From Planctomycetota bacterium (GTDB taxonomy: Bacteria; Planctomycetota; Phycisphaerae; WQYP01): 64,000 nt of DNA. A model generated the notes under the pieces. That model was not told the origin of the DNA. It saw only the letters and a program-made list of their open reading frames with translations, and made no database searches. Below, one piece after another: positions 2,273 through 22,290 of the stretch. Each line of letters begins with the position of its first letter. Position 1 is the stretch's first letter. The stretch spans positions 621 to 64,620 of the forward strand of contig JAJZNX010000025.1 in the NCBI GenBank assembly GCA_021852275.1, read 5' to 3'. The translations under genes and the position numbers were made by a program.

Positions 2273-2364
2273 CGACATTTGCTTAAGCGTGTTGGGTGGT
2301 CTCGCTCCGGCTGGATTTGTGGGGTTGTCGATTACCGAATTGGCGACCCCAGGAGGTTTCACCC

Positions 2365-7086: not shown

Positions 7087-7203
7087 TGTCGGGAAGAGAC
7101 AGGGCGGTGACGCCGCGGAAAGGAAGGCGCAAACCCGGTGGGAGTGTGGCGCGAATTTTCCCGGCAATCCGGGAATAGTCCGGGCGAGAGTGAAGGAGTG
7201 ACA

Positions 7204-9888
7204 ATGAATAAAAATTTAACGTATCTGCTTTTGCTGACGGCCGGAGCGGCATGGTGCACGGGGAGGCCACCGGTTGCACAAGGCCGGGCAATGGGTATAG
7301 ACGTCTCGAATTTTCAGGGGAGTATCAACTGGACGCAGGTGGCCGCGGACAGCGTGGGCGGCAGTTCCATCAGCTTTGCGTGGGCGAAATGTGATGAAGG
7401 CAGCGCAAGTAACGTAGACTACATTGATCCGACTTTTCAAACTAATGTGGCTGGTGCTACAACAGCAGGCATTATGATCGGGGCGTATCATTTAGCACAT
7501 CCGGAGCTTGACACGCCGGCATCCGAGGCGGATTTCTTCGTGGCCAACGCCCGCGCGCAGATTGGTGCCGGCTACCTGCGGCCGGTGCTGGATCTGGAGG
7601 AGGGTGGTGGAGTGCCGGTGGTGGGGGCATCAAGTCTGTCCGGGTGGGTCAATGATTTTTTAAGCGATGTGCAGGCTCTCAGCGGGGTTACGCCGATTAT
7701 CTATACGGACAGCAATTACGCCCAGAGTTACCTTGATTCGAGCGTAGCGAAGAACAATCTCTGGATCGCCAATTATAATTATCCAACGCAATCACAGACG
7801 GCCAGCCCGCCGGTTGGCGTTTTCAATGTCTGGAATTTCTGGCAATACACGGACAGTCTTAGCCTATCTGGCATCAGCGGCAACGTGGACGGCGATGTGG
7901 CTAACGGCCCGGTAAGCTACGTACAGAGCTTTGTGACCCCGATTGACACGCTGCAGTGGAATTCGGGTGAAAGCGGCAGTGGTGGTACTGATGGCAACGG
8001 CACATGGGGCGGGACTGGCAAGCAGTGGTACGACACGACAACTGTGGCCGGTCCTGTGCTGTGGACCACCGGTGACGGGGCGGCGCTCGGCAGTGGAAGT
8101 TCGGGGCAATACACCATTACGCTGACCAATGATGTTATCTGCGGCCAGAATGAAACCGGTACGTCAAATGCGGGGCCGTTTGTCGGCCTGACGGTTGCCT
8201 CCGGCGCCAACTATAACCTGAACGGTTCTGGACAGCTTTACTCGCTGACTGACAATGGCCGATTTCAGGTTAACGGCCGGCTTACCTTGGGAAACATTAC
8301 CCTGGACAATAGTTCGTATGACCATAACGTTTATTCAAGCATATCGGGCGTCTACGGAGGCCAGTTGAACATCGGTGCAGGGGCAAATGTCAATGCGGCG
8401 GAGATTGATGCGGGCGGGGGCAGCGGCGCAACCGGGACGATTAACGTCAATAGCGGAGGCAGTTTACTGGTAGGTTCGCGATTGCAGATCAACTTCGGCA
8501 AGGGGCCGGCCAGCGGTACCGGCGGCGTAGTAAATGTTGAAGGTGGTACGATCAGCTTGGGAAGCAGTGGAATCATCTGGCTTAGCGATGTGAACACGGG
8601 CGGGGGCAGCAATGGATCTGTGGGTACCCTCAACGTGGGTACAGGTGGCACCGGCGGCATTGTTACCGCCCCGGAAATGGAAACGGCATATAACAACACT
8701 GCGCAGACCGGGGTGTTGAATATTTACAGCGGTGCCGTTACACTCACCGGGGGTATTGCTGTTACCGCCAATGGCTCGGCAGTTACGGATGTCAATGTTT
8801 ACGGCGGTACATTTAACGCCGCTTCCGGCACGATTACCTCGGCTGTCGGGGCAGGTACAAACCTGAACGTAACGGGTGGAATCGTTACAGCGGCGACAAT
8901 CGATGCCGCGGGAACCACCAGTATGACCATCAGCGGCAGCGGCATCGTGAAAGCCACGAGTACTGGTGTCGGCGGGTCAATTACCAGTGGCAGCGGCGGT
9001 ACAACGACGATCAATCTTGACGGCGGGGTGCTATTTGTTTACACCATCAGCGGTGCCGGTGACGGGAACACCACACTTAATTTTAACGGCGGAATGCTGC
9101 AGGAAAATGGCGGATCTTCATTCGATCAGAGTATGATCAGCAGCGCCGGTGGATCGAAGCCGAACGTTTATATCGATAGCGGAGGAGGAATCATTGATAA
9201 CAATTCTGCAACTGTAATTGACTATGCACCATTTCTGGCGGGAACAACTTCCGGCGGCGGCCTGACGATTGCCAACAGCGGCAGCGGCGGAGCGGTCGAA
9301 CTGGCAGGTGGAGCCAACACGTACACGGGAGCGACGGAAATTAAATCTGGTGCCACCCTGGCGCTGGCGTACCATAACGGCGTGTCGGCTACGATTGTAG
9401 ACAGCAGGTTGCTGCAGATAGACACGGGAGGTACGTTGGACCTTACGGAGGAGGCGACGGGACAGCAGATCAGCGTTGGCGGATTGAGACTGGCGGGAGG
9501 CACCCTGAGATTCCTGCTGGACGGCAGCCAACTGCAGAGCATTGCCGCGAGCAGTGCCGCAACGGTCAGCGGCACAAACTGGATTGATATTTTTACCAAA
9601 GGATCTTCTCTCACAGTCGGCACGTACAACTTAATCAGTGATGGGCAGGGTGGATTATCAGGTGGAGGAAGCTTGAATTTTGGTAATGGTCTGGATCAGG
9701 AAACGGTTGTTGTTGGTTCTAACGGATACCTATTAACCTTGATAAATTCCGCCACACTGGAGACTTTGACCGTCGGCACGCAAGGGACCATTCCTGAACC
9801 ACCGGCGTTGGGGCTGGTGGCCGAGGCCGTGCTGCTGCTAGGGTGGAGCAGACGCACATACCGCGGTTTTAAACGCCAATGCGTATAA
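7204..9888 (+). CDS. GH25 muramidase (lysozyme) domain fused to beta-strand-repeat region and PEP-CTERM anchor
   Basis: ATG at 7204 follows GAAGGAG, and a signal peptide is present (LTYLLLLTAGAAWC). The GH25 signature runs GIDVSNFQGSINW...GAYHLAHP...LRPVLDLEE...IIYTDSNY...LWIANYN...WNFWQYTD...GNVDGDVANG. About 650 aa are paralogous to 3480-5606. The C-terminus is IPEPPALGLVAEAVLLLGWSRR. Confidence 0.85.
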   Translation: MNKNLTYLLLLTAGAAWCTGRPPVAQGRAMGIDVSNFQGSINWTQVAADSVGGSSISFAWAKCDEGSASNVDYIDPTFQTNVAGATTAGIMIGAYHLAHPELDTPASEADFFVANARAQIGAGYLRPVLDLEEGGGVPVVGASSLSGWVNDFLSDVQALSGVTPIIYTDSNYAQSYLDSSVAKNNLWIANYNYPTQSQTASPPVGVFNVWNFWQYTDSLSLSGISGNVDGDVANGPVSYVQSFVTPIDTLQWNSGESGSGGTDGNGTWGGTGKQWYDTTTVAGPVLWTTGDGAALGSGSSGQYTITLTNDVICGQNETGTSNAGPFVGLTVASGANYNLNGSGQLYSLTDNGRFQVNGRLTLGNITLDNSSYDHNVYSSISGVYGGQLNIGAGANVNAAEIDAGGGSGATGTINVNSGGSLLVGSRLQINFGKGPASGTGGVVNVEGGTISLGSSGIIWLSDVNTGGGSNGSVGTLNVGTGGTGGIVTAPEMETAYNNTAQTGVLNIYSGAVTLTGGIAVTANGSAVTDVNVYGGTFNAASGTITSAVGAGTNLNVTGGIVTAATIDAAGTTSMTISGSGIVKATSTGVGGSITSGSGGTTTINLDGGVLFVYTISGAGDGNTTLNFNGGMLQENGGSSFDQSMISSAGGSKPNVYIDSGGGIIDNNSATVIDYAPFLAGTTSGGGLTIANSGSGGAVELAGGANTYTGATEIKSGATLALAYHNGVSATIVDSRLLQIDTGGTLDLTEEATGQQISVGGLRLAGGTLRFLLDGSQLQSIAASSAATVSGTNWIDIFTKGSSLTVGTYNLISDGQGGLSGGGSLNFGNGLDQETVVVGSNGYLLTLINSATLETLTVGTQGTIPEPPALGLVAEAVLLLGWSRRTYRGFKRQCV

Positions 9889-10476: not shown

Positions 10477-11430
10477 ATGAGTCGGCTTTTTCCAGACATT
10501 ACCTCTACGATGGGCAATACACCCCTGGTACGAATCAATCGTTTGATTCCAGCCGGACAGGCGACAGTATACGCCAAATGCGAATTTTTTAATCCGTTAG
10601 GCAGCGTGAAAGACCGCATTGGCGTGGCAATGATTGCGGCAGCGGAAAAGGCGGGGCAAATTAACAAAGAAACGCACATCTTGGAGGCTACCAGCGGCAA
10701 CACTGGAATAGCCTTGGCATTTGTGTGTGCGGCAAAAGGCTACAAACTTACGCTGTTCATGCCGGAAAGCATGTCGCTGGAGCGGCGTAAGCTGCTGCGA
10801 ATTTTAGGTGCGAACCTGGTATTGACACCAGCTACGGAAGGTATGCCGGGGGCGATCCGTCGTTGTTCTGAAGCGGCGGAACATGACAAGAACTCTCTGA
10901 TTGCGAGGCAGTTTGAAAATCCTGCCAATGTAGAGATTCACCAGAAAACCACTGCAGAAGAAATCTGGCGTGATACTGACGGCAAGGTGGATGTTTTAAT
11001 ATCAGCAGTAGGTACTGGAGGAACAATTTCAGGGGTGGCTTCGGTGATTAAGAAGCGAAATCCAAGATTTCGGGCGATTGCCGTGGAACCAACGAATTCG
11101 CCGGTGATAACGCAGACGAAAGCGGGCCAACCTATCAAGCCTGGCCCGCATAAGATTCAGGGTGCCGGTGCAGGATTTATTCCCAAGAACTTACATATGG
11201 ATATTGTGGATGAAGTGATACAATGCACGAATGAAGATGCATTTACCTGGGCGCGGCGTTTAGCGGCGGAAGAGGGAATTTTGGCGGGCATCAGTTCCGG
11301 AGCCAATATGTGGGCAGCGGCCCAGGTGGCAGCCAGGCCGGAAATGAAGGGCAAAGTGATTGTGACAATTATGTGTTCTACCGGAGAGCGGTATTTGAGC
11401 ACAGCCATGTTTGAAGGCTTGGATGTATAA
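10477..11430 (+). CDS. cysK: cysteine synthase A (O-acetylserine sulfhydrylase)
   Basis: 317 aa. [11 protein letters not shown], the PLP-lysine region [22 protein letters not shown] and GTGGTISG are canonical CysK motifs. Confidence 0.95.
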
Positions 11431-12033
11431 GGTTACCGTTGGAGGGTGGGTTAATTTTTGCGATAGGCGGGCAATTATACTCAATTTAACATAACGTATA
11501 TACTGATTCACATGTGTTAGGTAGTCTGAGTAACGAATGATTGGTATCTGTGGATGAATAATAGTACGTATTACTTTGATATGACCAGGTGGAGTCAGAG
11601 TAACAGAATGATGAGGCTGTTTTAGTACCTTTAGAATCCGAATTGCATAAGTCGGTAATCTGCGTCTGAAAGATATAACGCTAAGAGCACCATCAGATCC
11701 CCATGGCGATAAGGGACAATTAATCTGGTTAGGTTTTAACATAGTTGATGAGATGATAACTCCGTGGCGCAACCAGAAAATTCGGACTGGGAATTTACAG
11801 TATGTCATTGAAAACTTACGCCGGCCGAGTTTCCAATTAAAGAGAGAAGAGTATTGGTGAACGCTTGATATGTAACAGAGCTTTGCGGTTTTTAATACAA
11901 AAATCTTGGCTGGAAAATGGATGAACTTGATTGTTTGTGAGTTTTGCAGTCGAGCACGTATAATGACGACACGTGCTAAACAACTGGTTGAAGCCAGAGC
12001 TATGACTGAGAAAATTAAGAGGTACTTTTTCAT
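11260..12033 (-). CDS. hypothetical signal-peptide protein whose ORF runs across attL into host DNA
   Basis: A 257-codon ORF in AT-rich DNA, where the other frames are stop-dense. Begins [18 protein letters not shown]. Residues YIRYVKL are encoded by the att core. The last roughly 80 codons lie outside the prophage and antisense to the cysK 3' end. Confidence 0.35.
11481..11501. repeat. attL: left copy of the 21-bp direct repeat TCAATTTAACATAACGTATAT (hybrid dif-like site 11484-11511)
   Basis: Identical to 21660-21680. It contains ATTTAACATAA (reverse complement of the E. coli XerD arm TTATGTTAAAT) plus the 6-bp centre CGTATA. The distal arm TACTGATTCAC is non-canonical. Confidence 0.8.
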
Positions 12034-12481
12034 ATAAAGCCCTTTAATGAGAAAATTCTTATCAGGAATATGAGATCCTGTCAAGCAATGGCTGATAAAA
12101 AATCGAAAAAATGACGTTCAATCAAATATTTAACAGTACGTTAGGTATTTGTTTGTATCAGCCGACCTGATTACACCTCAGTAAAAGAGAAATGAGAAAG
12201 ATCCGCTCCACGGCCGCTTGGCCGCTTGCAACTCTCTTCCCTCCAGGCTGGCCGACTGCCGTCGGCATTAGTTTCGCAGGTTAAATATGTAATGATGCTT
12301 CGTGTAGATCAGGTGATGCCATTGCTGGCCTGCATGCATAATTCGTATCAGGTTACGGATGGACGAACGGTCCTGTTGGTTCTTTACGTGCTGAATCTGG
12401 CATTGAAATGACCAAAGAAAACAGTAAAAAAGCAGAAAGGCTATGCTGATGATTCTTGGCCAAGACTTCCACATATGTTAC

Positions 12482-12871
12482 CTAGTAAATAATGTGCTTT
12501 TGTTTTAATATCTCAGGTGGTATTTCGTCATTCTTACCGGCGATGGCACGCCAGAAGTTCTTAACGTGCTTAGTCTCTTGGTAAACGAAATGACGATCAG
12601 ATTCTGGACCTGTTTCAGGACATAATTCTCGGAACCAGATGATATCTAAGAGCTCGCAATATTTTCGCCTGGTAGCGTCAGAATGGATTATGTCCAAGAC
12701 TTGATACCCGAAGAGTTGGCCGAGAAATAAAGCTCCAATTGCTGATTCTAATTGTCGGGCATCTGTTTCGCTTCGGTGACTATCACGTAATGCGTCTTCC
12801 ACGGTTTGGAGAATTTTATGAAGGCGCTTTGCTTGTTCTCGGGTATGTGCAAATGGTTTAGTTTTTTTCAT
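12482..12871 (-). CDS. hypothetical protein (prophage accessory gene)
   Basis: 129 aa. The start overlaps the stop of the upstream ORF (ATGA at 12868-12871). No motif recognised. Confidence 0.6.
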   Translation of the reverse strand: MKKTKPFAHTREQAKRLHKILQTVEDALRDSHRSETDARQLESAIGALFLGQLFGYQVLDIIHSDATRRKYCELLDIIWFRELCPETGPESDRHFVYQETKHVKNFWRAIAGKNDEIPPEILKQKHIIY

Positions 12872-13131
12872 GATTTCTCCTCTAAAAAGTGTCCATTCAT
12901 CCGCTTAATCATCAGCAGGACAGCCGCAAACGCCTCCTGTTGGCCTTGCAACCTCCGATACGACGGGTCGTCCTCTCTGATGTGAATTGACTCAAGCTGG
13001 GCCATCCTGGCTTGCGCCTGAGCCTCCTTGCCCACCAGCCAGTTAATGAGTGGTTGACTGTCCATGACGGGATCCTTTCTGTAATGTTTTTGTTCGGCCT
13101 TCCGCTTCAGCGAAAAGCTTCTTGGACTCAT
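12868..13131 (-). CDS. hypothetical small protein (prophage accessory gene); the start is more likely the ATG at 13065
   Basis: 87-aa tracked ORF. An internal ATG at 13065 gives a 65-aa product, MDSQPLINWLVGKEAQAQARMAQLES..., predicted helical. Translationally coupled to 12482-12871. Confidence 0.45.
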   Translation of the reverse strand: MSPRSFSLKRKAEQKHYRKDPVMDSQPLINWLVGKEAQAQARMAQLESIHIREDDPSYRRLQGQQEAFAAVLLMIKRMNGHFLEEKS

Positions 13132-14329
13132 TCAGAACTGGCTTTAAAATGACTGAATGTCTCAAGCCACCCGGTAACAAGTGAGGTTGTTGGTAATGTT
13201 CTTTGCAGGCAACACTTTCCAAAGAGATCCACAAAGAAAATTCGTCGCCGGCATCGTCATCGGCTAAGGTTGGATTGTTTGAAGATATTCCAAATTCCTT
13301 GCCCAAGCTTCGGTCAGTAGCACGGACTAACTGTACGGTGTCTCCAACATATCCTTGTGCCAGAAAATTGATTGTCTGTTGTACTTCTGGTGCTAACGGG
13401 TTTGAATCACCACCAATAAAACTCGAGATTGTAAGGTTTCCAGCAATAACCCAGTGGTTGCCGACTCTTGCTGCATTGAGGTCAACTGTAAGCCCGGATG
13501 TGCGCGTAGAGTAGCCTGATGTCAGCAGGTTATTGGTATTGCTGGTTGCAGCAGTTGTAGTGTATTCAGGAGCGACAATTGTTGTGGTATCAGTGTACTT
13601 TTCCTCTTGCCGGCTAAGCATAGTTGCTCCAAATGTAGTGAGAACAGCTTGAGCTTGGTGCAGCACATTACCCAAGACATTAACTCCAACACCAGATACT
13701 GTGGTCATTGAGGTTAGCGGAGTTGAGATCCCGTTGACAGATATATCAACATTGTTTGCCCGGCTTTCGTTGAGGAGCCAGACTTTGACACGTACTTGAG
13801 GAACACGACGAAGTAAGAATCGAAGTAGCTTTTCTGCCTTCGAGTACAGGCTGATGGGACCAGTAACAACCAATCTGTCGCCAATAGCCGAGAAGTTGAC
13901 TCGTGGAATTGCAAGTTGTTCCGGAACAATGCCCGTTAAGCCAGGATTGATCGGGTTAGGGACAACGACAGTAAACTGCCGGCGATGAGACCAATGCAAG
14001 CGAATAACATTACCTCGGAGATGAGGAACCGTATCTGTTTCACGAGCTAAGACTCTTGACAATCTTCGGGCTGTATATCGTCCGGCAAGCCAAACAGGAT
14101 CATCCTGCAATCGTGGATTAAAAAGTAAATGCAGGTTTTCGGTTGCCAATGCGGAACGCAGTACCCGTAATGTCATAATGCCTGAGAGGCGAAAGCCATG
14201 ACCATATACGTGAAACTTACGGACTTCACGTATCGTAAAGTGCTGGTGGACTGGCGTGGATGGCAAATCACCCATAGCACAGCCGGTGAGTGATATCACT
14301 ATTAAAAACAAAATCGTTAACCGCTTCAT
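13043..14329 (-). CDS. secretin-family outer-membrane channel, lipoprotein (phage pIV-like)
   Basis: 428 aa. Lipobox LTGC at residues 14-17. The C-terminal half (TVDLNAARVGNHWVIAGNLTISSFIGG...PEVQQTINFLAQGYVGDTVQLV) follows the secretin C-domain pattern. The size matches f1 pIV (about 426 aa). ATGA overlap with the Zot-like gene. Confidence 0.75.
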   Translation of the reverse strand: MKRLTILFLIVISLTGCAMGDLPSTPVHQHFTIREVRKFHVYGHGFRLSGIMTLRVLRSALATENLHLLFNPRLQDDPVWLAGRYTARRLSRVLARETDTVPHLRGNVIRLHWSHRRQFTVVVPNPINPGLTGIVPEQLAIPRVNFSAIGDRLVVTGPISLYSKAEKLLRFLLRRVPQVRVKVWLLNESRANNVDISVNGISTPLTSMTTVSGVGVNVLGNVLHQAQAVLTTFGATMLSRQEEKYTDTTTIVAPEYTTTAATSNTNNLLTSGYSTRTSGLTVDLNAARVGNHWVIAGNLTISSFIGGDSNPLAPEVQQTINFLAQGYVGDTVQLVRATDRSLGKEFGISSNNPTLADDDAGDEFSLWISLESVACKEHYQQPHLLPGGLRHSVILKPVLNESKKLFAEAEGRTKTLQKGSRHGQSTTH

Positions 14330-15552
14330 CTAATAGCTTTCTCATGGATAGTCATAGCACCCGCCTGATGACGTAATGTATCTGGAGCTTTTGGCTTTGG
14401 AGGCCACCACCAATATCGTTGAGTGACTTTGCCGGCTGGTCCCATGATTTGAATACCACCATAATTGACATCGAGTATTTTCCATCCATCAAATTTAAGT
14501 CCGATGGGAAGTAGGCCAACGTGAGATCCGTTACCCAGTATGACAGAATCGCCGATGATCCCATATAGACGGAGCTTTGATGACTTTTTGTAGACTTTTC
14601 TGACGATAATCTGTTTATGATTCTTTTTGGCAGGTAAATGCTGGTGATCGTATATGGCATCGGCCACCAAGAAAAGTGCCAAGACGGCCAAAACGTATCT
14701 TTTCCACTTTCGACGAGGCTTTTCTGCATGGTGGTTGGCGTTAACTTGCACAATTGTTTGTTGCGGCTGAACTTGTCCTGCATAAGCCGGATTAGCAGGA
14801 GGTATCGGTATGTGATAAGTCTGGGAAGACTGTCCAGGTTCAGGTTGATCACTTAGCACAATTGGCATGACTTTATTTCCTGTTGGTCGACTAACAACTG
14901 ATCCAGGTCGATTAGCCTTATTGGCAGCAACTTTGGCGCGAGTGTCGTACAGTTTGTAATAAGGGAGCATTTCCGCCGCTGTAACAACACGCGGAAGACC
15001 GATAGCCTGTTGTCGCTGACCATTCTCCACATTGTAAGTACGCTGGAAAAAAAAAATCGGACGGCCGCCGACTCTTGGTACAAATTCTGGGAATCCAACT
15101 CGTCTACAAGCTGTAAATCGTGTAGCCCGTTGGCGAATGAAAATATCCAGGTTGGCAAAATTCTGGCACAAGAGCCAGAGGCTATCGCCGTCTTTCCTGA
15201 ATTGTGATATGTAGGCTTGGAATGTGTTGCGATGGCCTGAGGAATCTTTCTCCGCACTGTTGATCTTCCAATCGCGAGCGGACCAGATCAGGTGAGCTTC
15301 GTCTACGTAGACGTCATATCCAGGAGGTATCAACTCCCAGAAGTGTCTGGTTTCTCCGGCATCATCGTCCAATAGAACAACTTCAGCACCCGACCAGATT
15401 CTTTTGGCTTGCTGCACAAAAGCAGGCAGGATTGCAATATTGGTTGCAATTTTATGGTGTCGGTAAACAGAATCGAGCATCAATTGTACGGCGAGCAGGC
15501 TTTTGCCACGACCTGGTGCACCGTCAATTATTGTCAGTGTACCATCCATCAA
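14326..15552 (-). CDS. Zot / pI-like P-loop morphogenesis ATPase
   Basis: Walker A IIDGAPGRGKS, Walker B-like VYVDEAHLIW, and an internal TM segment (RYVLAVLALFLVADAIY) as in inovirus pI/Zot. The likely true start is the ATG at 15549 (TGATG overlap with the upstream ORF). Confidence 0.85.
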   Translation of the reverse strand: MMDGTLTIIDGAPGRGKSLLAVQLMLDSVYRHHKIATNIAILPAFVQQAKRIWSGAEVVLLDDDAGETRHFWELIPPGYDVYVDEAHLIWSARDWKINSAEKDSSGHRNTFQAYISQFRKDGDSLWLLCQNFANLDIFIRQRATRFTACRRVGFPEFVPRVGGRPIFFFQRTYNVENGQRQQAIGLPRVVTAAEMLPYYKLYDTRAKVAANKANRPGSVVSRPTGNKVMPIVLSDQPEPGQSSQTYHIPIPPANPAYAGQVQPQQTIVQVNANHHAEKPRRKWKRYVLAVLALFLVADAIYDHQHLPAKKNHKQIIVRKVYKKSSKLRLYGIIGDSVILGNGSHVGLLPIGLKFDGWKILDVNYGGIQIMGPAGKVTQRYWWWPPKPKAPDTLRHQAGAMTIHEKAIR

Positions 15553-15950
15553 CTATTACCCCAGAACTGATGATAAGCGATCAGGGCAATTCGGATTAAC
15601 AGACAAACAGGTAGCAGGAGAAGGAGAAAGGCCAAACCGTCAACAAATACGGCCATATCAATAAATGGGTTAATTACGTCAGATAAAATGCTATAAATGT
15701 TCTCTATTACTGGTGCTGCATTGGTTATTGCAGTGGTGATATAGCTGACGACATATGTTAACCCCATGGCAGATATGCTAGCTTGAAAGAAGCTTGAAAT
15801 TTCAGGCAGGTAACCTTCAAGGCATGAGTACATGTAGGTCCAGATAACTTGAGCAGCAGCTTCTAAGCCCTGTATGACAAACTTTGTCGCAAAGTGTGCG
15901 AAATCAACCAGTGGCTGCATTACGTATGAGATAGTACCAGAAAGACTCAT
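15549..15950 (-). CDS. hydrophobic minor-coat-like membrane protein (pVI-like by size and position)
   Basis: 133 aa with several hydrophobic segments. Located between the adsorption-protein gene and the Zot-like gene, as gene VI is in Ff phages. Confidence 0.55.
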   Translation of the reverse strand: MSLSGTISYVMQPLVDFAHFATKFVIQGLEAAAQVIWTYMYSCLEGYLPEISSFFQASISAMGLTYVVSYITTAITNAAPVIENIYSILSDVINPFIDMAVFVDGLAFLLLLLPVCLLIRIALIAYHQFWGNS

Positions 15951-15952
15951 TT

Positions 15953-18157
15953 TTAGTCCTCGTTAGATGGTGCTCCGAGTTTGAAAGGTAATTCACCACC
16001 CCATAGTGACCAGTGAAAAATCTTAACGGTTGCGACCAGAATCCATAAAATATAAAAGCCGGTGCAAATTGGTTGTAACCACTCGCAGCCTGTAGAGAAG
16101 GTTATTAGACCGGCAACGAATGCGTTACCAATTGTTGAAACTTCACCATCCGGATCTGATGATGAAGTCGAAGTGAAACCAGGTCCTGTCCAGGAAACAC
16201 CGTTTGAAGGTTGCTGGATGCCGCCGTAAAGCGGCATATTCGAGAGGTTGGTTTGACCATCTGTATTGGATGCAGACGCAACTGCACCGATGCCCGTTGA
16301 TTCTGTAGATGCGTTAGCAGAGTTAAGAATGGTGTTTGTTACAAACTGCAATGGTTGTGTGAGTCTTGTAGCCTTTAATACGTCATAAGCACCTGTGCCT
16401 GAAGTGCTGTTAAATGTGTAAGAACCGGATGAAGATGTAGCAGAAGGCATGTCTTGGGTTAGTTGTGTGACCATATAGCCAGCATCAGAAGATGCTGATA
16501 ATGCAGAGCTTTGGGTGTTTTGCTGAATTGTAGTTTGGGAAAGTTGACCACTGGTCAGTCCAGAGAACGTGGCCAGGTAAGGTTTGATGTTTCCGTTTGC
16601 ATCTGGGGCGTTATAGAACGCCTCGGCGAACATGTTTGTATAGACACCTTGAGGTGTGTCAGGTCCCTGATACCACTCGGCTGGAGTTTCTCCAGGTGCC
16701 TGTTGGAAGGAGGAAGTAGTAATGAAGTTATATGGTGCAGTTAAGTAACCTGATTGCGTTTCAGTGATACCATATGCGTATGAGAGTAGTTGTGGTAATG
16801 ACGCACTAACTTGACTCCCGAATGGCATGCTATTCAAACTTCCATTACCGTATTGGTTGTAAAATTGCCAGTCTAGTGCACCAAATGATGTGTAATAAGG
16901 TTGTGGTATAGATCCACCTAAACTCGAATTATAAAATTGACCTATATCGTAATTTGGTTGCCAGGTGAGAGCAGCGGCGATGTCGTCTAAATAGCTGTTT
17001 CCCTCCGGATCAAGAAAAACACTGTGGCCGATGTCGGGGTTGCCTTGTGGCCCGGTTAGGTTTGGATTGTCGGTTAGGAATACGCTGCTGCCCAGTGGGA
17101 CGGTTTCGGTGCCGGTGATTGCTTGTGCTTGGGTTTGGAATGCTGAATCCCAAATACCCTGTTGGGGGTAGGTCTGGTTGTGGTTTGGCATGTACCATGC
17201 TTCCCAGTTGTTTCGTCCCGAGAAGACAGATACGCTTTCTTCTGGTCCGTATTCGTCTTTGAATACGGAGCTTAGGCCTGCTTTTGGGCTGTTGGATGTG
17301 ATGCCTGTGTCGTAGTTGAGTTGTGCAAAGTAGGACAGTCCGCCGTTTATTCCGAGGTTGGTGTTCGCGGTGGGTTGGACGAAGGCGCTTGCTCCGTATT
17401 TGTCTGTGAAGACGGGCCAAGAGTTGTTGTATTCGGTGGCTTCTTGCCATGCCGTCGGGGGCTGAAGTGCGTTTGCTAGGTTTTGCGCCGCGGCGTCCGG
17501 GTTGTAGGCGAAGTCGGATTGTTCGGTCAAGGCGTTGTAAAACAGGCTGTTGCCGTTGCCGTCCTTGAATACGCTGGTGGCGGTGCCTTTCTGGTTTCCG
17601 GAGGAGTTTGTGTAGGTTGGGGTGAAAGAGAAGTCGCTGCCGCCGGTGTTGGGGTCTATGAAGACGCTTTGGTAGGTTGATGGTTCGTTTAGGGTGCCGG
17701 TGGCGTAGTAGGGCATTCCGTTGCCCATCATCCACCATGGGTTTTGGCTGTATTGTTGCTGGAATACGCTCCATTGGTTGTTTTGGTCGTAGAAAGCGTG
17801 GTAATTGATTGATGCGGTGCTGGCGAGTACGCCAGTTTGGTTGGCGGTGTTGCCGCGTATGGCGGGTAGTTCGCCGACGGTGCTTGTGCCGACGGTTGCG
17901 TCGTTTGCTATGCCGATTTGGGCGGCGCTTTGGTTGATGGCGTTTACCACGGTGCTGAAGGCTGGGTATGAGCCTGATCCGTTGTTGTTGGTGTAGGCCG
18001 CGCTTGCCGTTGCGCAAGGGGCGGCGGCTGTGGCTAGGATTATGGCTGCGGCCGCCGTGTGGTGCCAGTTGGTGCGGGTGGTCCGCTGGGGCCAGGCGGT
18101 CGCTAGGAGGCTGTGTAGTCGGTGCGCGTCTTGTCGTCGTGTTTTTTTGGCGTTCAT
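15953..18157 (-). CDS. large N/S/T/Q/Y/G-rich secreted protein with a C-terminal membrane anchor (pIII-like adsorption / receptor-binding protein)
   Basis: The ATG at 18157 gives MNAKK...AAAAIILATAAAPCATASA, a signal peptide. The C-terminal hydrophobic anchor is GFYILWILVATVKIF. The largest gene of the element sits immediately upstream of the pVI-like and pI-like genes. Confidence 0.65.
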   Translation of the reverse strand: MNAKKTRRQDAHRLHSLLATAWPQRTTRTNWHHTAAAAIILATAAAPCATASAAYTNNNGSGSYPAFSTVVNAINQSAAQIGIANDATVGTSTVGELPAIRGNTANQTGVLASTASINYHAFYDQNNQWSVFQQQYSQNPWWMMGNGMPYYATGTLNEPSTYQSVFIDPNTGGSDFSFTPTYTNSSGNQKGTATSVFKDGNGNSLFYNALTEQSDFAYNPDAAAQNLANALQPPTAWQEATEYNNSWPVFTDKYGASAFVQPTANTNLGINGGLSYFAQLNYDTGITSNSPKAGLSSVFKDEYGPEESVSVFSGRNNWEAWYMPNHNQTYPQQGIWDSAFQTQAQAITGTETVPLGSSVFLTDNPNLTGPQGNPDIGHSVFLDPEGNSYLDDIAAALTWQPNYDIGQFYNSSLGGSIPQPYYTSFGALDWQFYNQYGNGSLNSMPFGSQVSASLPQLLSYAYGITETQSGYLTAPYNFITTSSFQQAPGETPAEWYQGPDTPQGVYTNMFAEAFYNAPDANGNIKPYLATFSGLTSGQLSQTTIQQNTQSSALSASSDAGYMVTQLTQDMPSATSSSGSYTFNSTSGTGAYDVLKATRLTQPLQFVTNTILNSANASTESTGIGAVASASNTDGQTNLSNMPLYGGIQQPSNGVSWTGPGFTSTSSSDPDGEVSTIGNAFVAGLITFSTGCEWLQPICTGFYILWILVATVKIFHWSLWGGELPFKLGAPSNED

Positions 18158-18363
18158 TTTGCAAGTTCCTTGTAGTGGTTGACTATTTCCGGGGTTCGGG
18201 CGCATTTGCCGCAGAGTCCACGGCCGCGGCTGAAGTCTACCCAGAGCCAGGATGTACCGTCTGGGCCTCTCCTGCGGCCAGTAAGATGGCATCCCACGCA
18301 TCGGCACTTTGTCCAAGACTGTCTGGACATGATCATTAGACGACGATCAATTTTCATTTTCAT
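18154..18363 (-). CDS. small Cys-rich zinc-ribbon-like protein
   Basis: ATG at 18363 with GGAAAGGA just upstream. 69 aa containing CRCVGC...CGKC. Its stop overlaps the pIII-like start (ATGA at 18154-18157). Confidence 0.45.
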   Translation of the reverse strand: MKMKIDRRLMIMSRQSWTKCRCVGCHLTGRRRGPDGTSWLWVDFSRGRGLCGKCARTPEIVNHYKELAK

Positions 18364-18484
18364 TGTCCTTTCCGCTTTTTGGTGAAAACATGGGTTTAAG
18401 CAGTGGCAGATAGACAAAAGCATAGAAGGCAAACATGCCACAAAAAAATGACAACACTGGCATTACATAATCTCCAAACGATGC

Positions 18485-18501
18485 CCGGGCCGGGGCCGAT
18501 A
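18485..18501. repeat. left arm of a 17-bp perfect inverted repeat bracketing the major-coat gene
   Basis: CCGGGCCGGGGCCGATA is the exact reverse complement of 18819-18835. Confidence 0.9.
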
Positions 18502-18525
18502 TTAGAGTGTGAAGTAACCTTCGGA

Positions 18526-18804
18526 TTACTTCATGGCGTGTTTGGCCCTCCGGAAGATAAAGAACACTGTCCAGATCGCGGCCCCGATACCGATGATCGG
18601 GAGCAAGGCCGGGTAAATGTAGGTGGTCAGTGACCCAACAATGTTATCAGGCGAGACCGATGAGGAAAGTGTAGGACCGTAGTCTACCTGTGCCCATGTA
18701 ATGCCATGGAAAAACAACGTGCCAACCAGGGCAACTGCTGCGAACAGAAAAGTCCGTGTTCGTCGGAAGAGGCTTGAAGCCATCGAAATTAGAGAAGAAA
18801 ACAT
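18526..18804 (-). CDS. major coat protein candidate (pVIII-like)
   Basis: 92 aa. Signal peptide ending ITWA/QVDY, then an acidic/polar N-terminus. One TM helix (ALLPIIGIGAAIWTVFFIF) and a basic C-terminus (RRAKHAMK). This is the classic inovirus coat architecture. Confidence 0.7.
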   Translation of the reverse strand: MFSSLISMASSLFRRTRTFLFAAVALVGTLFFHGITWAQVDYGPTLSSSVSPDNIVGSLTTYIYPALLPIIGIGAAIWTVFFIFRRAKHAMK

Positions 18805-18818
18805 AAAAGAATCCTTTC

Positions 18819-18835
18819 TATCGGCCCCGGCCCGG
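18819..18835. repeat. right arm of the 17-bp perfect inverted repeat bracketing the major-coat gene
   Basis: TATCGGCCCCGGCCCGG lies 15 nt upstream of the coat ATG. Its partner is at 18485-18501. Confidence 0.9.
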
Positions 18836-18842
18836 AGACCGA

Positions 18843-19025
18843 TTAAGTATCACTTTCATTGTCAGAACCATACCGATCGTCAATGATAAAATGTTGGTCT
18901 TTGTTTGAATTATCAGCAGCTTCGTTATTGTCAGAAAACAGAACGTGTACAATCTCGATGATCCAAGTAATCACTGCAATGCAGATACTTAGCCACCACA
19001 TGCTGATGTTGTAAATGATTCTCAT
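18843..19025 (-). CDS. small single-TM protein (minor coat-like)
   Basis: 60 aa, MRIIYNISMWWLSICIAVITWIIEIV..., with an acidic tail. The ATG overlaps the stop of the upstream ORF (ATGA at 19022-19025). It is hidden in the track inside a longer 136-aa ORF. Confidence 0.4.
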   Translation of the reverse strand: MRIIYNISMWWLSICIAVITWIIEIVHVLFSDNNEAADNSNKDQHFIIDDRYGSDNESDT

Positions 19026-19216
19026 TTTAAGACTTCCCAACATCTTCGGATGATCCAAGGTCCAAAAAATAGGCCGGCTGCACAACCACAGAGAACAAGA
19101 GCACCAGGTGCCAACCAACTCCAAACTGATTCGCCAATTTGTATTGCCGTGACTACAGGCTCCGGTCCGTATGAAGAAGCGGCTGCAATCTGTGCCAAAA
19201 TCATGTTTACTTCCAA
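19022..19216 (-). CDS. small single-TM protein (coat-like: hydrophobic core, basic C-terminus)
   Basis: 64 aa. The TM segment is APGALVLCGCAAGLFFGPWII, followed by RRCWEVLK. Confidence 0.45.
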   Translation of the reverse strand: MEVNMILAQIAAASSYGPEPVVTAIQIGESVWSWLAPGALVLCGCAAGLFFGPWIIRRCWEVLK

Positions 19217-19500
19217 TCCAATAAATCAACAGCTTGGCGCCAGATCCAGCCAAAACTCATGCTTGTTGACCAGATCAATAAACCGGCTCCCATACCATCC
19301 ATGAATCCGTTAAGGCTAAGATTGGGCTCGTTAGGTTGTGTCCAAATAGGATAGCCAGAATCAGGGTTAGGAGGCGTCATCTGGTAAACCGTGACATCGC
19401 CTGCGGAACTTTGTCCAGGTTGTAATTGACCCAAAACAAGGCTTTGTGTTGCCCAAATAGCCCAGGCAGCGAAAAAAAGATAAATGATGGCCAGTTTCAT
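19207..19500 (-). CDS. small secreted/membrane protein
   Basis: An internal ATG at 19500 gives MKLAIIYLFFAAWAIWA, a signal peptide. 97 aa with a C-terminal hydrophobic segment. Confidence 0.45.
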   Translation of the reverse strand: MKLAIIYLFFAAWAIWATQSLVLGQLQPGQSSAGDVTVYQMTPPNPDSGYPIWTQPNEPNLSLNGFMDGMGAGLLIWSTSMSFGWIWRQAVDLLDWK

Positions 19501-19517
19501 AGAAAATATTCCCCGGG

Positions 19518-19925
19518 TCAGGCTGGAGACTCCCTGTAGGCCAAGGTCCATTCAATAACACGCTCAAGCCATATCGGTATGTTTGGTGGGGGGTTTGGCG
19601 GTTTTGTGTTATTAATCAAGTAAAGCTTTTTAACTCCCGAATTATCGCCGGCGGCGGCTTCGCTAATCGCCGCCGGCATCTGTTCGGGATACCCAGAAAG
19701 TGATACTGAATTAACAACACCAAAAACCGACCGGAAACACCCGAGAAAATATTGCCAGGTTGTAGCGTCTATGGTGACCGCAATCCATCCTTTAGAACCA
19801 GCAGGTACTAAATCTAGTCCTAGATGTCGAAGCGTATCAAGCAGCTGATTGAAATTGATTTTTAGATTGCCAAACCATCGTCCGTAGACCCTGTACGTGC
19901 TTCTATTGCTGGCCTTGTCTATCAT
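19518..19925 (-). CDS. C-terminal portion of the replication initiator (separate ORF only because of a frameshift at the G10 tract)
   Basis: This reading frame is open upstream of its ATG as far as 20030. It joins the Rep frame if the G run at 19974-19983 is one nt shorter. Confidence 0.5.
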   Translation of the reverse strand: MIDKASNRSTYRVYGRWFGNLKINFNQLLDTLRHLGLDLVPAGSKGWIAVTIDATTWQYFLGCFRSVFGVVNSVSLSGYPEQMPAAISEAAAGDNSGVKKLYLINNTKPPNPPPNIPIWLERVIEWTLAYRESPA

Positions 19926-20523
19926 TTGACCAATGCTGGTATAAACAGGGATAGGGATCGGCCCATTTGGCCGCCCCCCCCCCTGACCGAACTGGTGACC
20001 TCCAGAAACCAGGTGAGGCGTGAATGATCTTCACCGACCCTGCCCTGTATGTGTATAAAAATGGTGGTACACCATCAGTTTTTGAAAAGTATTTACAGAA
20101 ATAGCGGAGTTCAAATTCACCGGCCCGCCTGATCCAGACAAAGCCCCAGCCCCAGCATTTATCGAGCAGGTCATGTTCGATTCTGTCCAGGCCGATTATT
20201 AAAATGTGCCAATGAAGCCAGCCTCCAGATTGAAACTCTGTTTTAGCAATCCATAGTCCGGTTAGCGAAGTGCCGAGGCGCTCACTTAATCTGGTAATGA
20301 ACCGTCTTAGGTGACGTTCAGCAGAGGCTTTGTAGTAAAGGTCATCTGGGGATTGGAACTCTTCACGTCGATAGGTCAGTTCGATTTTAAGAACACGTTC
20401 ACCCTTACAACGAGTAATAAGTTTCTCGGCTAATTGCCAGGCTTTCACCGGCCCGTAAGTAGCGTCAAGCCAGGAACGTGCCTGACCAGGTTTAATCTCT
20501 ACGTCTGTTGCGTTGTTATCCAT
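19903..20523 (-). CDS. rolling-circle replication initiator, HUH endonuclease (phage gene II-like), N-terminal portion
   Basis: HUH motif GGWLHWHILIIG, and a downstream Tyr motif, ELRYFCKYFSK. The ORF ends 21 codons after the G10 tract. Confidence 0.7.
   Translation of the reverse strand: MDNNATDVEIKPGQARSWLDATYGPVKAWQLAEKLITRCKGERVLKIELTYRREEFQSPDDLYYKASAERHLRRFITRLSERLGTSLTGLWIAKTEFQSGGWLHWHILIIGLDRIEHDLLDKCWGWGFVWIRRAGEFELRYFCKYFSKTDGVPPFLYTYRAGSVKIIHASPGFWRSPVRSGGGAAKWADPYPCLYQHWSNDRQGQQ
19974..19983. repeat. homopolymer C10 (G10 on the coding strand) inside rep
   Basis: Counted directly: ccg + 10 c + tga. Confidence 0.95.
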
Positions 20524-20582
20524 TTAATCGTCTCCAAGTTATTTCAAAGTCTGGAGCTCTCTCTCCGCTCCCCAGGCTAGTC

Positions 20583-20846
20583 TTACTTGGAGACAATTCT
20601 TTTTGCGTTCGTGAGCATGAACTTCCAAGAATTATTAAACTGCTCGAAATTGCCTGTGCACTCATACTGTGCACCGACCTGACAGGAATCTGCCAGCTTC
20701 TGGTCCCTGGTAGCCAACTCGAATGTCCCGCCCATGCATGAGAATTTGACCAGGTGCTGGAAGACCCGGCCATCTTTGGTTTTCAGGTCACGGACTTCTG
20801 AACAGACACCAACCAACTGAAACGAGGGAATCGGAGCAAAATCCAT
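20583..20846 (-). CDS. small protein, candidate ssDNA-binding protein (gene V-like by size and position)
   Basis: 87 aa, the same length as f1 gVp. Good RBS (GAAAGGA), immediately upstream of rep. No sequence motif was verified. Confidence 0.4.
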   Translation of the reverse strand: MDFAPIPSFQLVGVCSEVRDLKTKDGRVFQHLVKFSCMGGTFELATRDQKLADSCQVGAQYECTGNFEQFNNSWKFMLTNAKRIVSK

Positions 20847-20858
20847 AAATGGATCCTT

Positions 20859-21578
20859 TCATAAAACGCATAACTGATGCGCGTCAGGACAAACCAAACT
20901 GGCTGGTCGAGCCATGCCGTGAAGGAGGAACACGGCATGGTTGCGACGAGTCAGGTAGGACAACTGACCGGTCACAGGCGTAGGAGCTTTATTTTGGAAG
21001 TAGCGGCAAATACCAGACTGTAACAGGCTGTATTGGGTGGCAGTTTTCTGGAATGAGTTGACTTGGTGCCTTAATTTTCGAGAGTTTGTTCTTGTGTTCT
21101 TCGAATAAGAAGAGCCAGACAAGTTCATCGGCTGGAGCAGCAGCGAGGATTGATGCTGTAATAGAAGAGCAATTACTTGGCAGATAAGGGCACCCGTTGT
21201 TGGTGATTGCCAGTACGTGTCCATTGATAACGTCAATTGGTTGAAATTTTGGATCCATAAAATACTCCTGATAAAAAGAGATTGGCCGGTTAAGAAAGAT
21301 CGGAGATTGCGTGGACTGGTTAATGGGTTAAGCCACCTTAAAGGAAAGATTTCAGGTCCCGGGTAACCCGGAATGAATCTCATATCTTTAAGTGAACGAA
21401 ACCAGTCTGAATGTATCCAACGAATTGCGGCATTGTGCCGGCGGACATCATAGTTATGCAGTCTGATGATTGTAATAACGTTAAGCCAGATGACCCAGAT
21501 GAAAAAAGTAATCAGGAAAGGCCATCGTACTGACTTGTAGACACGATCAATTATGTTTTCAAAACGCTTAAAGTCCAT
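20859..21578 (-). CDS. hypothetical membrane protein (first gene of the prophage; true 3' end uncertain)
   Basis: ATG at 21578 with AGGTG upstream. The N-terminal roughly 100 aa contain a clear TM segment (WPFLITFFIWVIWLNVITII). The distal part is S/L/Q-rich, overlaps the 89-aa ORF and includes the hairpin. Confidence 0.35.
   Translation of the reverse strand: MDFKRFENIIDRVYKSVRWPFLITFFIWVIWLNVITIIRLHNYDVRRHNAAIRWIHSDWFRSLKDMRFIPGYPGPEIFPLRWLNPLTSPRNLRSFLTGQSLFIRSILWIQNFNQLTLSMDTYWQSPTTGALICQVIALLLQHQSSLLLQPMNLSGSSYSKNTRTNSRKLRHQVNSFQKTATQYSLLQSGICRYFQNKAPTPVTGQLSYLTRRNHAVFLLHGMARPASLVCPDAHQLCVL
20912..20940. repeat. perfect 10-bp stem / 9-nt loop hairpin CCATGCCGTG-AAGGAGGAA-CACGGCATGG
   Basis: Read directly. 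It lies 66 nt upstream of the SSB-like gene start, in the segment between the 89-aa ORF and that gene. Confidence 0.9.
20989..21258 (-). CDS. hypothetical protein
   Basis: 89 aa. The ATG at 21258 is preceded by AGGAG with a 6-nt spacer. It overlaps the 239-aa ORF in a different frame. Confidence 0.4.
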   Translation of the reverse strand: MDPKFQPIDVINGHVLAITNNGCPYLPSNCSSITASILAAAPADELVWLFLFEEHKNKLSKIKAPSQLIPENCHPIQPVTVWYLPLLPK

Positions 21579-21659
21579 GCTGGCACCTGTTAGGTAATAG
21601 TTTGCAGTCTGTTTGGGCAGTCCTGTAATAACAGTTTATTCTGTAAATTTTAGAGGTGG

Positions 21660-21690
21660 TCAATTTAACATAACGTATATTATAGGACGT
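21660..21690. repeat. attR: right copy of the 21-bp repeat plus the complete 28-bp dif-like site (21663-21690)
   Basis: ATTTAACATAA-CGTATA-TTATAGGACGT. The reverse complement ACGTCCTATAA-TATACG-TTATGTTAAAT aligns with E. coli dif GGTGCGCATAA-TGTATA-TTATGTTAAAT. The XerD arm matches 11/11, and the ATAA end of the XerC arm is conserved. Confidence 0.75.
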
Positions 21691-21776
21691 TGTATAAATT
21701 ATAAAAAAGCTGGTGACGCCCGGTTTTATAGGAAAATTGCGTCAAGAGCCGTCTCCGCATATTCTTTATTCAAGTC

Positions 21777-21850
21777 GCGCTCGTAGCTCAGTTGGATAGA
21801 GCGGCGGTTTCCTAAACCGCAGGTCGCAGGTTCGATCCCTGTCGGGCGCA
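21777..21850 (+). tRNA. tRNA-Arg (anticodon CCT)
   Basis: 74 nt, folded by hand as a cloverleaf. Acceptor GCGCTCG/CGGGCGC, anticodon loop TTCCTAA, T-loop TTCGATC. Confidence 0.9.
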
Positions 21851-21864
21851 TCAGACCGGCCAGT

Positions 21865-22290
21865 TCATCCGATCATGGCGGTAGCTTCAATTTCAATCAT
21901 TGCCGCCTCATCAATGAGGTTGCTCACTTCCACCGTGACTGTGGCAGGCCGGATTTCTCCGAACATTTCTCCATGCACTGTGGCCACCTTCTCCCAATCC
22001 TTGATATGCCGCAGGTACATGCGAGTACTGACGACATCCGCTACTGAAGCTCCCAGCACCTCGAGGGCACTTTGAATAATGGCCAGCGATCTGCGGGTTT
22101 GCTGGGCTACATCCGGGGAGTATGTTTTATCTGGGTTGATGCCCACGCATCCACTGACAAATATCAGATTTCCCTTTTTCACTGCCCGACTGTAGCCGAT
22201 TTTTGGCTCCCACGCACTGCCGGAACTAACGGTTAATTTTCCAGCACGTTCTACCAGGGTAAATGGTGATTTTTGATGGTTATGAGCCAT
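21865..22290 (-). CDS. ridA: RidA/YjgF/TdcF family reactive-intermediate deaminase
   Basis: 141 aa. The pattern YSRAVKKGNLIFVSG ... ADVVSTRMYL ... RPATVTVEVSNL...IEIEATA is typical of the family. Confidence 0.8.
   Translation of the reverse strand: MAHNHQKSPFTLVERAGKLTVSSGSAWEPKIGYSRAVKKGNLIFVSGCVGINPDKTYSPDVAQQTRRSLAIIQSALEVLGASVADVVSTRMYLRHIKDWEKVATVHGEMFGEIRPATVTVEVSNLIDEAAMIEIEATAMIG

Follow-up and report, generated by a model that had tools for sequence, protein, structure and literature searches.

A probable filamentous prophage at a dif-like site in an uncultured member of the Phycisphaerae

RESULTS

The block between cysK and tRNA-Arg

The window analysed here (the whole 64,000-nt stretch, positions 621 to 64,620 of contig JAJZNX010000025.1) contains, between a cysK gene and a tRNA-Arg gene, a block of ~10.2 kb that probably represents the prophage of a filamentous single-stranded DNA (ssDNA) phage, an inovirus. 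An earlier note, made from the sequence alone, had described an AT-rich, integrase-less, inovirus-like prophage at this place, with all of its genes on the minus strand. The arrangement of the genes is as that note gave it: in an open reading frame (ORF) scan the long ORFs of the block lie on the minus strand without exception, and genes overlap through ATGA at 12868-71, 14326-29, 18154-57 and 19022-25 and through TGATG at 15549-51. With 10,179 bp and these five overlaps, the block has the size and packing of an inovirus genome (about 5–15 kb, with short, packed, co-oriented ORFs). The AT-richness holds over 11500-16999 and 18500-21999, where the G+C content is 0.40–0.49 against 0.50–0.59 in the flanks, but not over a 1.5-kb island at 17000-18499, which has a G+C content of 0.54–0.55 and whose coding strand is strongly biased towards A+C.

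Both ends of the block carry perfect copies of a 21-nt direct repeat, TCAATTTAACATAACGTATAT, at 11481-11501 and 21660-21680, 10,179 bp apart, in agreement with the repeated core that had been expected there. The chance of such a repeat pair within 12.5 kb is ~2e-5 by the analyst's rough estimate. The features of the locus, in order of their coordinates, are as follows.

10477-11430, plus strand: PALP/CysK gene of the left flank, by profile match
11260..12036, minus strand: last phage ORF (MKKYLL…), crossing attL into the antisense of cysK; phage part 11502-12036
11481-21690, minus-strand genes only: the putative inovirus prophage, ~10.2 kb
11481..11511, no strand: attL; 28-mer 11484-11511, ATTTAACATAA-CGTATA-TACTGATTCAC
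11515..11522, plus strand: right-hand copy of the TGTTAGGT motif
12040..12300, minus strand: intergenic region with coding-strand hairpins, e.g. GCCGAC-GGCA-GTCGGC at 12251-12266; z = -2.4
12482..12871, minus strand: 129-aa ORF, no family match in Pfam or PHROGs
12868..13065, minus strand: 65-aa helical ORF, the most conserved protein among the relatives
13043..14329, minus strand: 428-aa lipoprotein, predicted to be a highly divergent secretin (pIV analogue)
14326..15549, minus strand: 407-aa pI/Zot morphogenesis ATPase with Walker A GAPGRGKS, DEAH-type Walker B and hydrophobic segment RYVLAVLALFLVADAIY
15549..15950, minus strand: 133-aa hydrophobic pVI-like protein, two C-terminal transmembrane-like segments
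15953..18157, minus strand: 734-aa pIII-like adsorption protein (signal peptide at the N-terminus, anchor at the C-terminus, 'SVF' motif repeated)
18154..18357, minus strand: 67-aa CxxC…CxxC (Zn-ribbon) ORF, ATGA overlap with the pIII-like start
18526..18804, minus strand: 92-aa major-coat-like protein with signal peptide, acidic N-terminus, one transmembrane helix and basic tail RRAKHAMK
18843-19025 and 19022-19204, minus strand: two 60-aa single-transmembrane proteins, candidate minor coat proteins
19207..19551, minus strand: 114-aa protein with N-terminal signal or transmembrane segment
19518..20523, minus strand: rolling-circle Rep (HUH motif LHWHIL; two-tyrosine motif RYFCKYFSK; REP_ORF2-G2P)
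20583..20846, minus strand: 87-aa protein with a modelled OB fold, candidate ssDNA-binding protein (gV analogue)
20859..21578, minus strand: 239-aa protein with N-terminal transmembrane segment, first gene after attP
21588..21595, plus strand: left-hand copy of the TGTTAGGT motif, just upstream of the ribosome-binding site of the 239-aa gene
21660..21690, no strand: attR; 28-mer 21663-21690, ATTTAACATAA-CGTATA-TTATAGGACGT, complete dif-like site with both arms good
21777-21850, plus strand: tRNA-Arg(CCT) of the right flank

Two gene calls of the earlier note are revised here. An 89-aa ORF (20989-21258) is probably spurious, because it is nested in the 239-aa ORF and absent from the gene calls, and the 87-aa ORF of no assigned function at 12868-13131 is more likely to encode 65 aa (12868-13065), judging from the starts of its homologues and from gene callers. 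The 239-aa protein has no family match in Pfam or PHROGs.

The host is, on the genes that flank the block, a member of the Planctomycetota, since the nearest relatives of CysK come from metagenome-assembled genomes of Phycisphaerae (83% and 70%) and the window encodes a DUF1559/N-methyl pseudopilin-like protein (2296-3312). This agrees with the planctomycete-like host suggested earlier. The DUF1559/N-methyl family is expanded in planctomycetes.

Morphogenesis and replication genes

The two most recognizable genes encode the assembly ATPase and the replication initiator, both of which exceed the curated Pfam cut-offs, as a profile check proposed earlier showed. The pI/Zot protein matches PF05707 with 35.8 bits (cut-off 20.3, E=7e-9) and two PHROGs profiles, phrog_197 'Zot-like toxin' (E=3.5e-9) and phrog_1675 (M13 protein I; E=5e-4). 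Its relatives are few: a tblastn search of 50,697 GenBank phage records and the scan of IMG/VR applied here gave none, and there are 5 sister clusters in all among 5.8e9 proteins. The Rep ORF at 19903-20523 matches REP_ORF2-G2P (PF23343) with 46.6 bits (cut-off 27.8, E=4e-12). HUH and YxxKY motifs, the phiX174-A-type signature, are read in its sequence, and in a tblastn search against GenBank phages Microviridae initiators were the sole matches (~30%).

The 87-aa ORF upstream of Rep is an orphan, with no homologue beyond itself in the sequence search. Its model, built from the single sequence, shows a β1-3/α/β4-5 oligonucleotide/oligosaccharide-binding (OB) fold with a predicted local distance difference test (pLDDT) of 85, and its structural matches are SSB, RPA and PriB (E 2e-3 to 4e-2, template-modelling (TM) scores about 0.5–0.59). 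The model is thus in line with the earlier remark that the ORF is SSB-sized and makes the protein a candidate ssDNA-binding protein, the analogue of gV.

The coat, pIII and pVI roles are read from sequence features and should be taken as predicted. The 92-aa ORF has two hydrophobic segments, the signal and the transmembrane helix, and a 41% homologue occupies the same position in a related prophage (phage 2, described below); no Pfam or PHROGs profile matches it. These features, including the basic tail, are those for which it had previously been called pVIII-like, and they make it the putative major coat protein by the standard applied to inoviruses. A G+C-rich 26-nt inverted repeat, 85% complementary, exactly frames this gene (18476-18501 / 18819-18844, with 317 nt between the arms). 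Upstream, the 114-aa protein is 43% identical to a 90-aa protein of phage 2, and downstream the stretch of the 67-aa ORF is 82% conserved at the nucleotide level in another relative, L096.

The gene for the pIII-like protein appears to be a mosaic. Over its 5' half (16975-18007) the nucleotide identity to phage 2 (L091 6173-7196) is 76% and the T content 13%, the T-poor composition of phage 2, and the remainder of the gene is much more diverged. By eye, the N-terminal ~200 aa are about 90% identical in the two proteins. The similarity suggests a receptor-binding module shared by the pIII-like proteins of both phages and points to co-resident phages that have recently exchanged the part presumed to bind the receptor. 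Within this half, a separate 21-nt repeat, spaced by 147/159 nt (17247-17573), underlies the '…SVF(x)D…' peptide repeat, and suggests a receptor-binding domain that is built of repeats and perhaps rich in β-structure.

A divergent secretin

The 428-aa lipoprotein had been proposed as a secretin of pIV size. Every sequence profile failed to recognize it as such: no match was found in Pfam, PHROGs or PDB sequences (phmmer), the secretin domain PF00263 matched neither the protein nor any of 12 homologues at E<=1, and the best match in a PDB profile search, to the junction between N3 and the secretin domain of MxiD, was non-significant (E=0.19). The structure model, in contrast, supports the proposal. 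An exhaustive HMMER search of 1.84e9 representatives gave 13 relatives, and AlphaFold2 on the 13-sequence alignment produced a model with a pLDDT of 66 overall and ~90 over residues 45–125 (N-domain). In Foldseek searches of the PDB the top 46 matches are secretins throughout, including InvG (3.5e-12), the lipoprotein secretin BfpB (8.6e-11) and f1 pIV (8.7e-6), with PilQ and GspD/PulD among further secretin matches. With these matches the model fits the secretin fold, in which periplasmic N-domains precede the long β-hairpins of the barrel. A lipoprotein signal (…LTGC) is present in the protein and in most homologues, the called ORF of the phage 2 homologue lacking it. Members of the family adjoin Zot genes wherever the context is readable. 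We accept the protein as a very divergent secretin on the strength of this model.

The secretin, coat, SSB and adsorption proteins had no family matches in profile searches, and such searches on their own overlook this clade.

Attachment sites and the dif reading

The flanking genes named in the earlier note are correct, but the target is better described as a dif site: the repeat has no contact with the tRNA gene, from which it is 87 nt away, and tRNA-targeted integration was ruled out. In attL, a host XerD-type arm is followed by the 6-bp centre and by an arm of phage origin that has 3/11 positions in common with the host XerC-type arm. The left arm ATTTAACATAA is the exact reverse complement of the Escherichia coli XerD arm TTATGTTAAAT and fits the XerD arms of Bacillus subtilis and Frankia, and the right arm of attR resembles their XerC arms (dif sequences quoted in PMC3025954). 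From these comparisons and from the TTATGT signature of the free arm (see below), we infer that the left arm is of XerD type and the right arm of XerC type. The logic of site-specific recombination assigns the outer halves to the host dif and the inner halves to the phage attP. The attP would then consist of a perfect XerD-type arm, an identical centre and an XerC-type arm with 3/11 matches; the predicted attP junction reads …TTTTAGAGGTGGTCAATTTAACATAACGTATATACTGATTCACATGTGTTAGG… and the predicted attB junction …GGGCAATTATACTCAATTTAACATAACGTATATTATAGGACGTTGTATAAATT….

Since the repeat covers most of a 28-bp dif and the element has no recombinase-like ORF, the best reading is that of a Xer-exploiting element (IMEX) at the dif of its host rather than that of a tRNA-targeting one. 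None of the 15 ORFs matches a recombinase family in Pfam or PHROGs, in keeping with the description of the element as integrase-less. A folded attP of the CTX type was ruled out, with no inverted arm copy near attP and no stable attP hairpin on either strand.

The reconstructed attP lies between two directly repeated TGTTAGGT motifs whose starts are 106 nt apart. They occupy identical positions in L096, and the sequence between them has diverged between these two phages. An accessory or regulatory protein may bind to this pair. For the right-hand copy there is a second possible reading, as a displaced XerC-like arm, TGTTAGGTAGT (7/11).

The complete site occurs once in the 64 kb. Across the element the GC skew falls from +0.13 on the left to -0.02 on the right, and all six ORFs of >=250 aa on the left lie on the plus strand, those on the right mostly on the minus strand. 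Beyond the window, at least 120 metagenome contigs carry the half-site …ACATAA-CRTAYA-TTATMGGACGT once each, with varying outer bases in the XerD-type arm. The constant right arm of these matches was imposed by the query; the free arm begins TTATGT… in 113/120 among the matches listed, the query imposing TTAT alone. Some of the contigs come from human-gut assemblies, and together they probably represent the dif family of a broad set of bacteria. These loci show neither synteny with the present host nor relatives of the phage genes.

Planctomycetota divide without FtsZ. FtsK is reported to be conserved across the Planctomycetes–Verrucomicrobia–Chlamydiae superphylum (PMC12283558), and dif prediction failed for the one planctomycete analysed by Kono et al., 2011 (PMC3025954).

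Related prophages and a tandem array

Three related prophages, all metagenomic, were reached through homologues of the secretin and pI: phage 2 (L091/L092), L096 and L093. From left to right, a copy of the window phage is followed directly by phage 2 and then by tRNA-Arg. Phage 2 shares with the window phage the pIII-like protein (52%), the secretin (41%), pI (35%), the coat protein (41%) and the 65-aa protein (75%), and has a Rep_trans-like initiator and two OB-sized ORFs in place of the replication genes of the window phage. L096, found in a JGI metagenome, is likewise inserted at the cysK/tRNA-Arg locus, in a related host; L093 has a different gene context. Apart from the morphogenesis genes, the 65-aa protein is the only unannotated ORF common to all four phages.

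All four are bounded by the same kind of 28-mers, in which the host-side arms are constant (ATTTAACATAA … TTAT[AC]GGACGT) and the phage-side arms fall into two types:

Type A attP (window phage, L096): XerD-type arm 9–11 of 11, XerC-type arm 3–4 of 11
Type B attP (phage 2, L093): XerD-type arm 6–7 of 11, XerC-type arm 9–10 of 11

Every arrangement keeps exactly one two-armed site, which in the tandem array lies between both prophages. The array of two different inoviruses (L091 1-12569 and L092 1-5700) recalls the TLC-CTX arrays of Vibrio cholerae. Two Logan contigs begin exactly at att sites and gave no evidence for alternative junctions. Identical copies of the window phage were found in several ENA and Logan assemblies.

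A more distant member of the secretin family lies on the 9,140-nt contig L217, together with a Zot gene and a Rep_trans initiator. A 30-nt terminal overlap indicates that this contig is circular, and it resembles the full genome of an episomal inovirus; a search of its 9,140 nt for ATAA-N6-TTAT sites gave none.

DISCUSSION

The proposed phage and its life cycle

Gene content, folds, repeat structure and an architecture shared with three relatives lead us to the view that the block is probably the prophage of a temperate filamentous ssDNA phage (inovirus sensu lato, Tubulavirales) of an uncultured Phycisphaerae bacterium, integrated at dif via host XerC/XerD. From these observations we infer catalysis by Xer, excision, the production of virions and the functions assigned to the small proteins. 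In the proposed cycle, the two-tyrosine HUH Rep would nick the circular genome and replicate it by rolling circle, and the 87-aa OB-fold protein would coat the single strand. Hairpins of the intergenic region, a candidate packaging signal or minus-strand origin, may serve as packaging signal and/or complementary-strand origin. Without lysing the cell, the genome would leave through the pI/Zot ATPase of the inner membrane and, coupled to it, a self-piloting lipoprotein secretin that the phage itself supplies to the outer membrane, acquiring on its way the major coat protein made from the 92-aa precursor, the small single-transmembrane caps, the pVI-like protein and the 734-aa pIII-like protein.

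For lysogeny, the double-stranded attP would mimic the host dif over its XerD-type arm, 6-bp centre and three outer bases, which make up the 21 identical nucleotides, and the integrase-less phage would be inserted by host XerC/XerD into the chromosomal dif beside cysK. This would leave a crippled site at the left junction and restore a complete dif at the right one, so that chromosome dimer resolution would be preserved.

Several observations weigh against this interpretation. A G10 run (19974-19983) divides the Rep of the window copy into two parts of 206 aa and 135 aa. Neither an empty attB nor a circular attP junction was found, the 21-nt core having 0 matches in IMG/VR and the JGI metagenomes, and contigs with the flanking genes all carry the prophage (exact Zot, CysK and RidA protein look-ups). 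The closest genomes (CysK 83%, 70%) are not syntenic downstream and are without tRNA-Arg or a dif motif. The copies of the window phage are nearly identical and possibly come from one study, and hence are not independent. As to the route of integration, XerC recruitment is hard to explain with a phage-side XerC-type arm of 3/11; host XerC/XerD are assumed, no tyrosine recombinase having been found among ten mid-sized window ORFs, and GC-skew support at other sites is weak (16/24, p=0.07). Finally, the secretin model is moderate (pLDDT 66) and its TM-scores are low (0.25–0.35).

Alternative explanations

Several of these points would also be expected of a defective, fixed inovirus remnant, cryptic or domesticated, that no longer excises, replicates or makes particles. 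The G10-split Rep is found in the window and in two or more further assemblies; all recovered contigs have the element in integrated form, the exact look-ups having returned integrated copies or fragments and nothing else; attP and attB were not found; and an attL that lacks one arm might block excision. On the other hand, all other ORFs are intact and the gene overlaps are kept. In another assembly (L089) a G9 allele restores one 334-aa Rep, which is also called in L091, and a tract of 9–10 G is prone to slip, so that the split is possibly reversible or an assembly error; the G9/G10 difference may reflect slippage, phase variation or a homopolymer or assembly error. A second phage is integrated in tandem, and the recombinant segment in the pIII-like gene implies recent exchange with a co-resident phage, which argues against a long-dead remnant. 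On balance we regard decay to a remnant as unlikely. The earlier reading of a complete or near-complete inovirus is supported, with the refinement that Rep is split in the window copy.

Integration might instead depend on an unrecognized phage recombinase or transposase, or on one encoded elsewhere, the 21-nt repeat being dif-like by chance. Room for such an enzyme is left by the ORFs without a family (239 aa, 129 aa, 65 aa, Zn-ribbon), host Xer genes were not observed among the window ORFs, and dif prediction had failed for one planctomycete (PMC3025954). This explanation is very unlikely in view of a layout that follows the 11-6-11 pattern of dif exactly, with ATAA/TTAT as inner palindromes and one arm matching a cross-phylum XerD arm in full, of four phages with two replication modules that use one target, and of at least 120 metagenome contigs that each contain one site of this type and lack relatives of the phage genes; nor is any unannotated ORF kept in all four phages except the morphogenesis genes and the 65-aa protein.

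That the block is no virus and instead a host-owned secretion or pilus-like cluster, AT-rich by accident, is hardly credible: cells too have Zot-family ATPases and secretins, and viral profiles leave most of the ORFs unmatched, but rolling-circle Rep, OB-fold protein, coat-like protein and Ff-like gene order are all present, att repeats bound the block, the cysK locus of related genomes lacks it, and a relative exists as a 9.1-kb circular contig. The outcome that the earlier note had named as a refutation, the same block without repeats at this locus in all relatives, was not seen; the empty cysK/tRNA-Arg site that it had proposed to look for in related genomes was not found either, the closest of them not being syntenic.

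Comparison with known filamentous phages

The filamentous prophage proposed here shares with the Ff phages (M13/f1/fd) the genome size class, one-strand genes, its own secretin and an OB-fold ssDNA-binding protein. Its gene order is Ff-like as well: Rep … major coat, pIII-like, pVI-like, pI, pIV secretin and a hairpin-rich intergenic region. The order Rep … coat, pIII, pVI, pI, secretin, intergenic hairpins is that of Ff. Unlike Ff, it has an SSB gene upstream of Rep, a Rep nearest to those of Microviridae, a secretin undetectable by Pfam, a temperate habit and extra genes (239 aa, 129 aa, 65 aa, Zn-ribbon and DUF192-like).

CTXphi, VGJphi and TLCphi use host Xer integration (PMC4246890, PMC9226527). 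TLCphi, like the window phage, has no integrase, a double-stranded attP, a dif-identical centre and one good arm, leaves one functional dif beside the prophage and forms arrays with other filamentous phages (PMC4246890, PMC9226527). However, the degenerate arm is the XerD arm in TLCphi and the XerC-type arm (3/11) in the window phage, whose XerD-type arm is 11/11; the TLC-like arm pattern (PMC4246890) belongs to the type B sites of phage 2 and L093. The window phage is moreover a full phage whereas TLCphi is a satellite, and no window-phage ORF has an XafT-like (DUF3653) match in Pfam. VGJphi and the Xanthomonas Cf/Lf-type phages share with it a double-stranded dif-like attP, host XerCD and two flanking dif-like sites, but in VGJphi both arms are bona fide and the centre homology is partial (PMC4246890), whereas here the centre is identical and one arm is missing. 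CTXphi is likewise an integrase-less inovirus at dif that forms tandem arrays with other IMEXs; it integrates as folded ssDNA from two inverted attP sites, and no such second site or forked hairpin was found around attP in the window phage. The window phage thus fails the specific attP definitions of the TLCphi, VGJphi and CTXphi types, which makes an element of one of these types less likely and leaves a route through Xer unaffected.

An attP without an XerC arm, together with complementary stacking, could be a new variant. We tentatively raise the further possibility, which we hold to be rather doubtful, that Phycisphaerae inoviruses define an undescribed Xer strategy: an attP with a perfect XerD arm and centre and no XerC-binding arm (the mirror of TLCphi), perhaps helped by a TGTTAGGT-binding factor, would stack with TLC-like phages on opposite sides of a single functional dif, and the att sites would represent the first concrete Planctomycetota dif (ACGTCCKATAA-TRTAYG-TTATGTTAAAT). 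If true, two complementary half-site attP types would widen what Xer recombinases can do.

The earlier note left it undecided whether such a phage had been described for this lineage. Five inovirus-like prophage sequences in Planctomycetes, for example in Planctomycetaceae bacterium KSU-1, are already listed by Roux et al. 2019 (Supplementary Table 4); these are computational detections in the same phylum, uncharacterized, with no mention of Phycisphaerae. Strain ZRK32, a cultured member of the Phycisphaerae, has a chronic phage of 21.9 kb with a hexagonal particle, which is not an inovirus. The Xer route familiar from the cholera phages is apparently used here by a very divergent phage in a Phycisphaerae host, a lineage with no earlier description of such a phage or of this route. 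Near-complete filamentous prophages with their own secretin would thereby extend to the Phycisphaerae, which have few cultured members and essentially no characterized phages. The phage is also a possible starting point for genetic tools in Planctomycetota (phagemid-like vectors, dif-targeted integration), and the site locates a candidate dif, and hence replication terminus, in a phylum where dif prediction had failed (PMC3025954).

Further features of the locus

The phage genomes differ in base composition. In the three relatives (L091 1800-12569, L096 2570-14150, L093 3920-15010) the coding strand has 13–15% T and about 65% A+C; the window phage is balanced outside 16975-18150. Ff phages are T-rich on the packaged strand, a bias opposite to that of the three relatives.

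Promoter and terminator scans gave no useful excess over the shuffled expectation, and an Rfam scan of the window returned three tRNAs and nothing further. Within the intergenic region, a non-coding block of ~40 nt, GAGGGAAGAGAGTTGCAAGC… (12204-12243), is 90% identical to L091 11535-11575 in phage 2, where it is inverted relative to the genes; strong hairpins adjoin it in both phages. The last phage ORF (MKKYLL…) encodes 257 aa in the integrated state and 214 aa in the reconstructed circle, with different C-termini. It is related to the last gene of phage 2 (31%, E=4e-9), itself a weak, sub-threshold DUF192 match. The att site of phage 2 contains the end of a small ribbon-helix-helix-like ORF instead. 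In the host sequence to the left, the gene at 7138-9888 encodes a 916-aa protein with a lysozyme-like start, long Gly/Thr-rich repeats and a PEP-CTERM-like tail.

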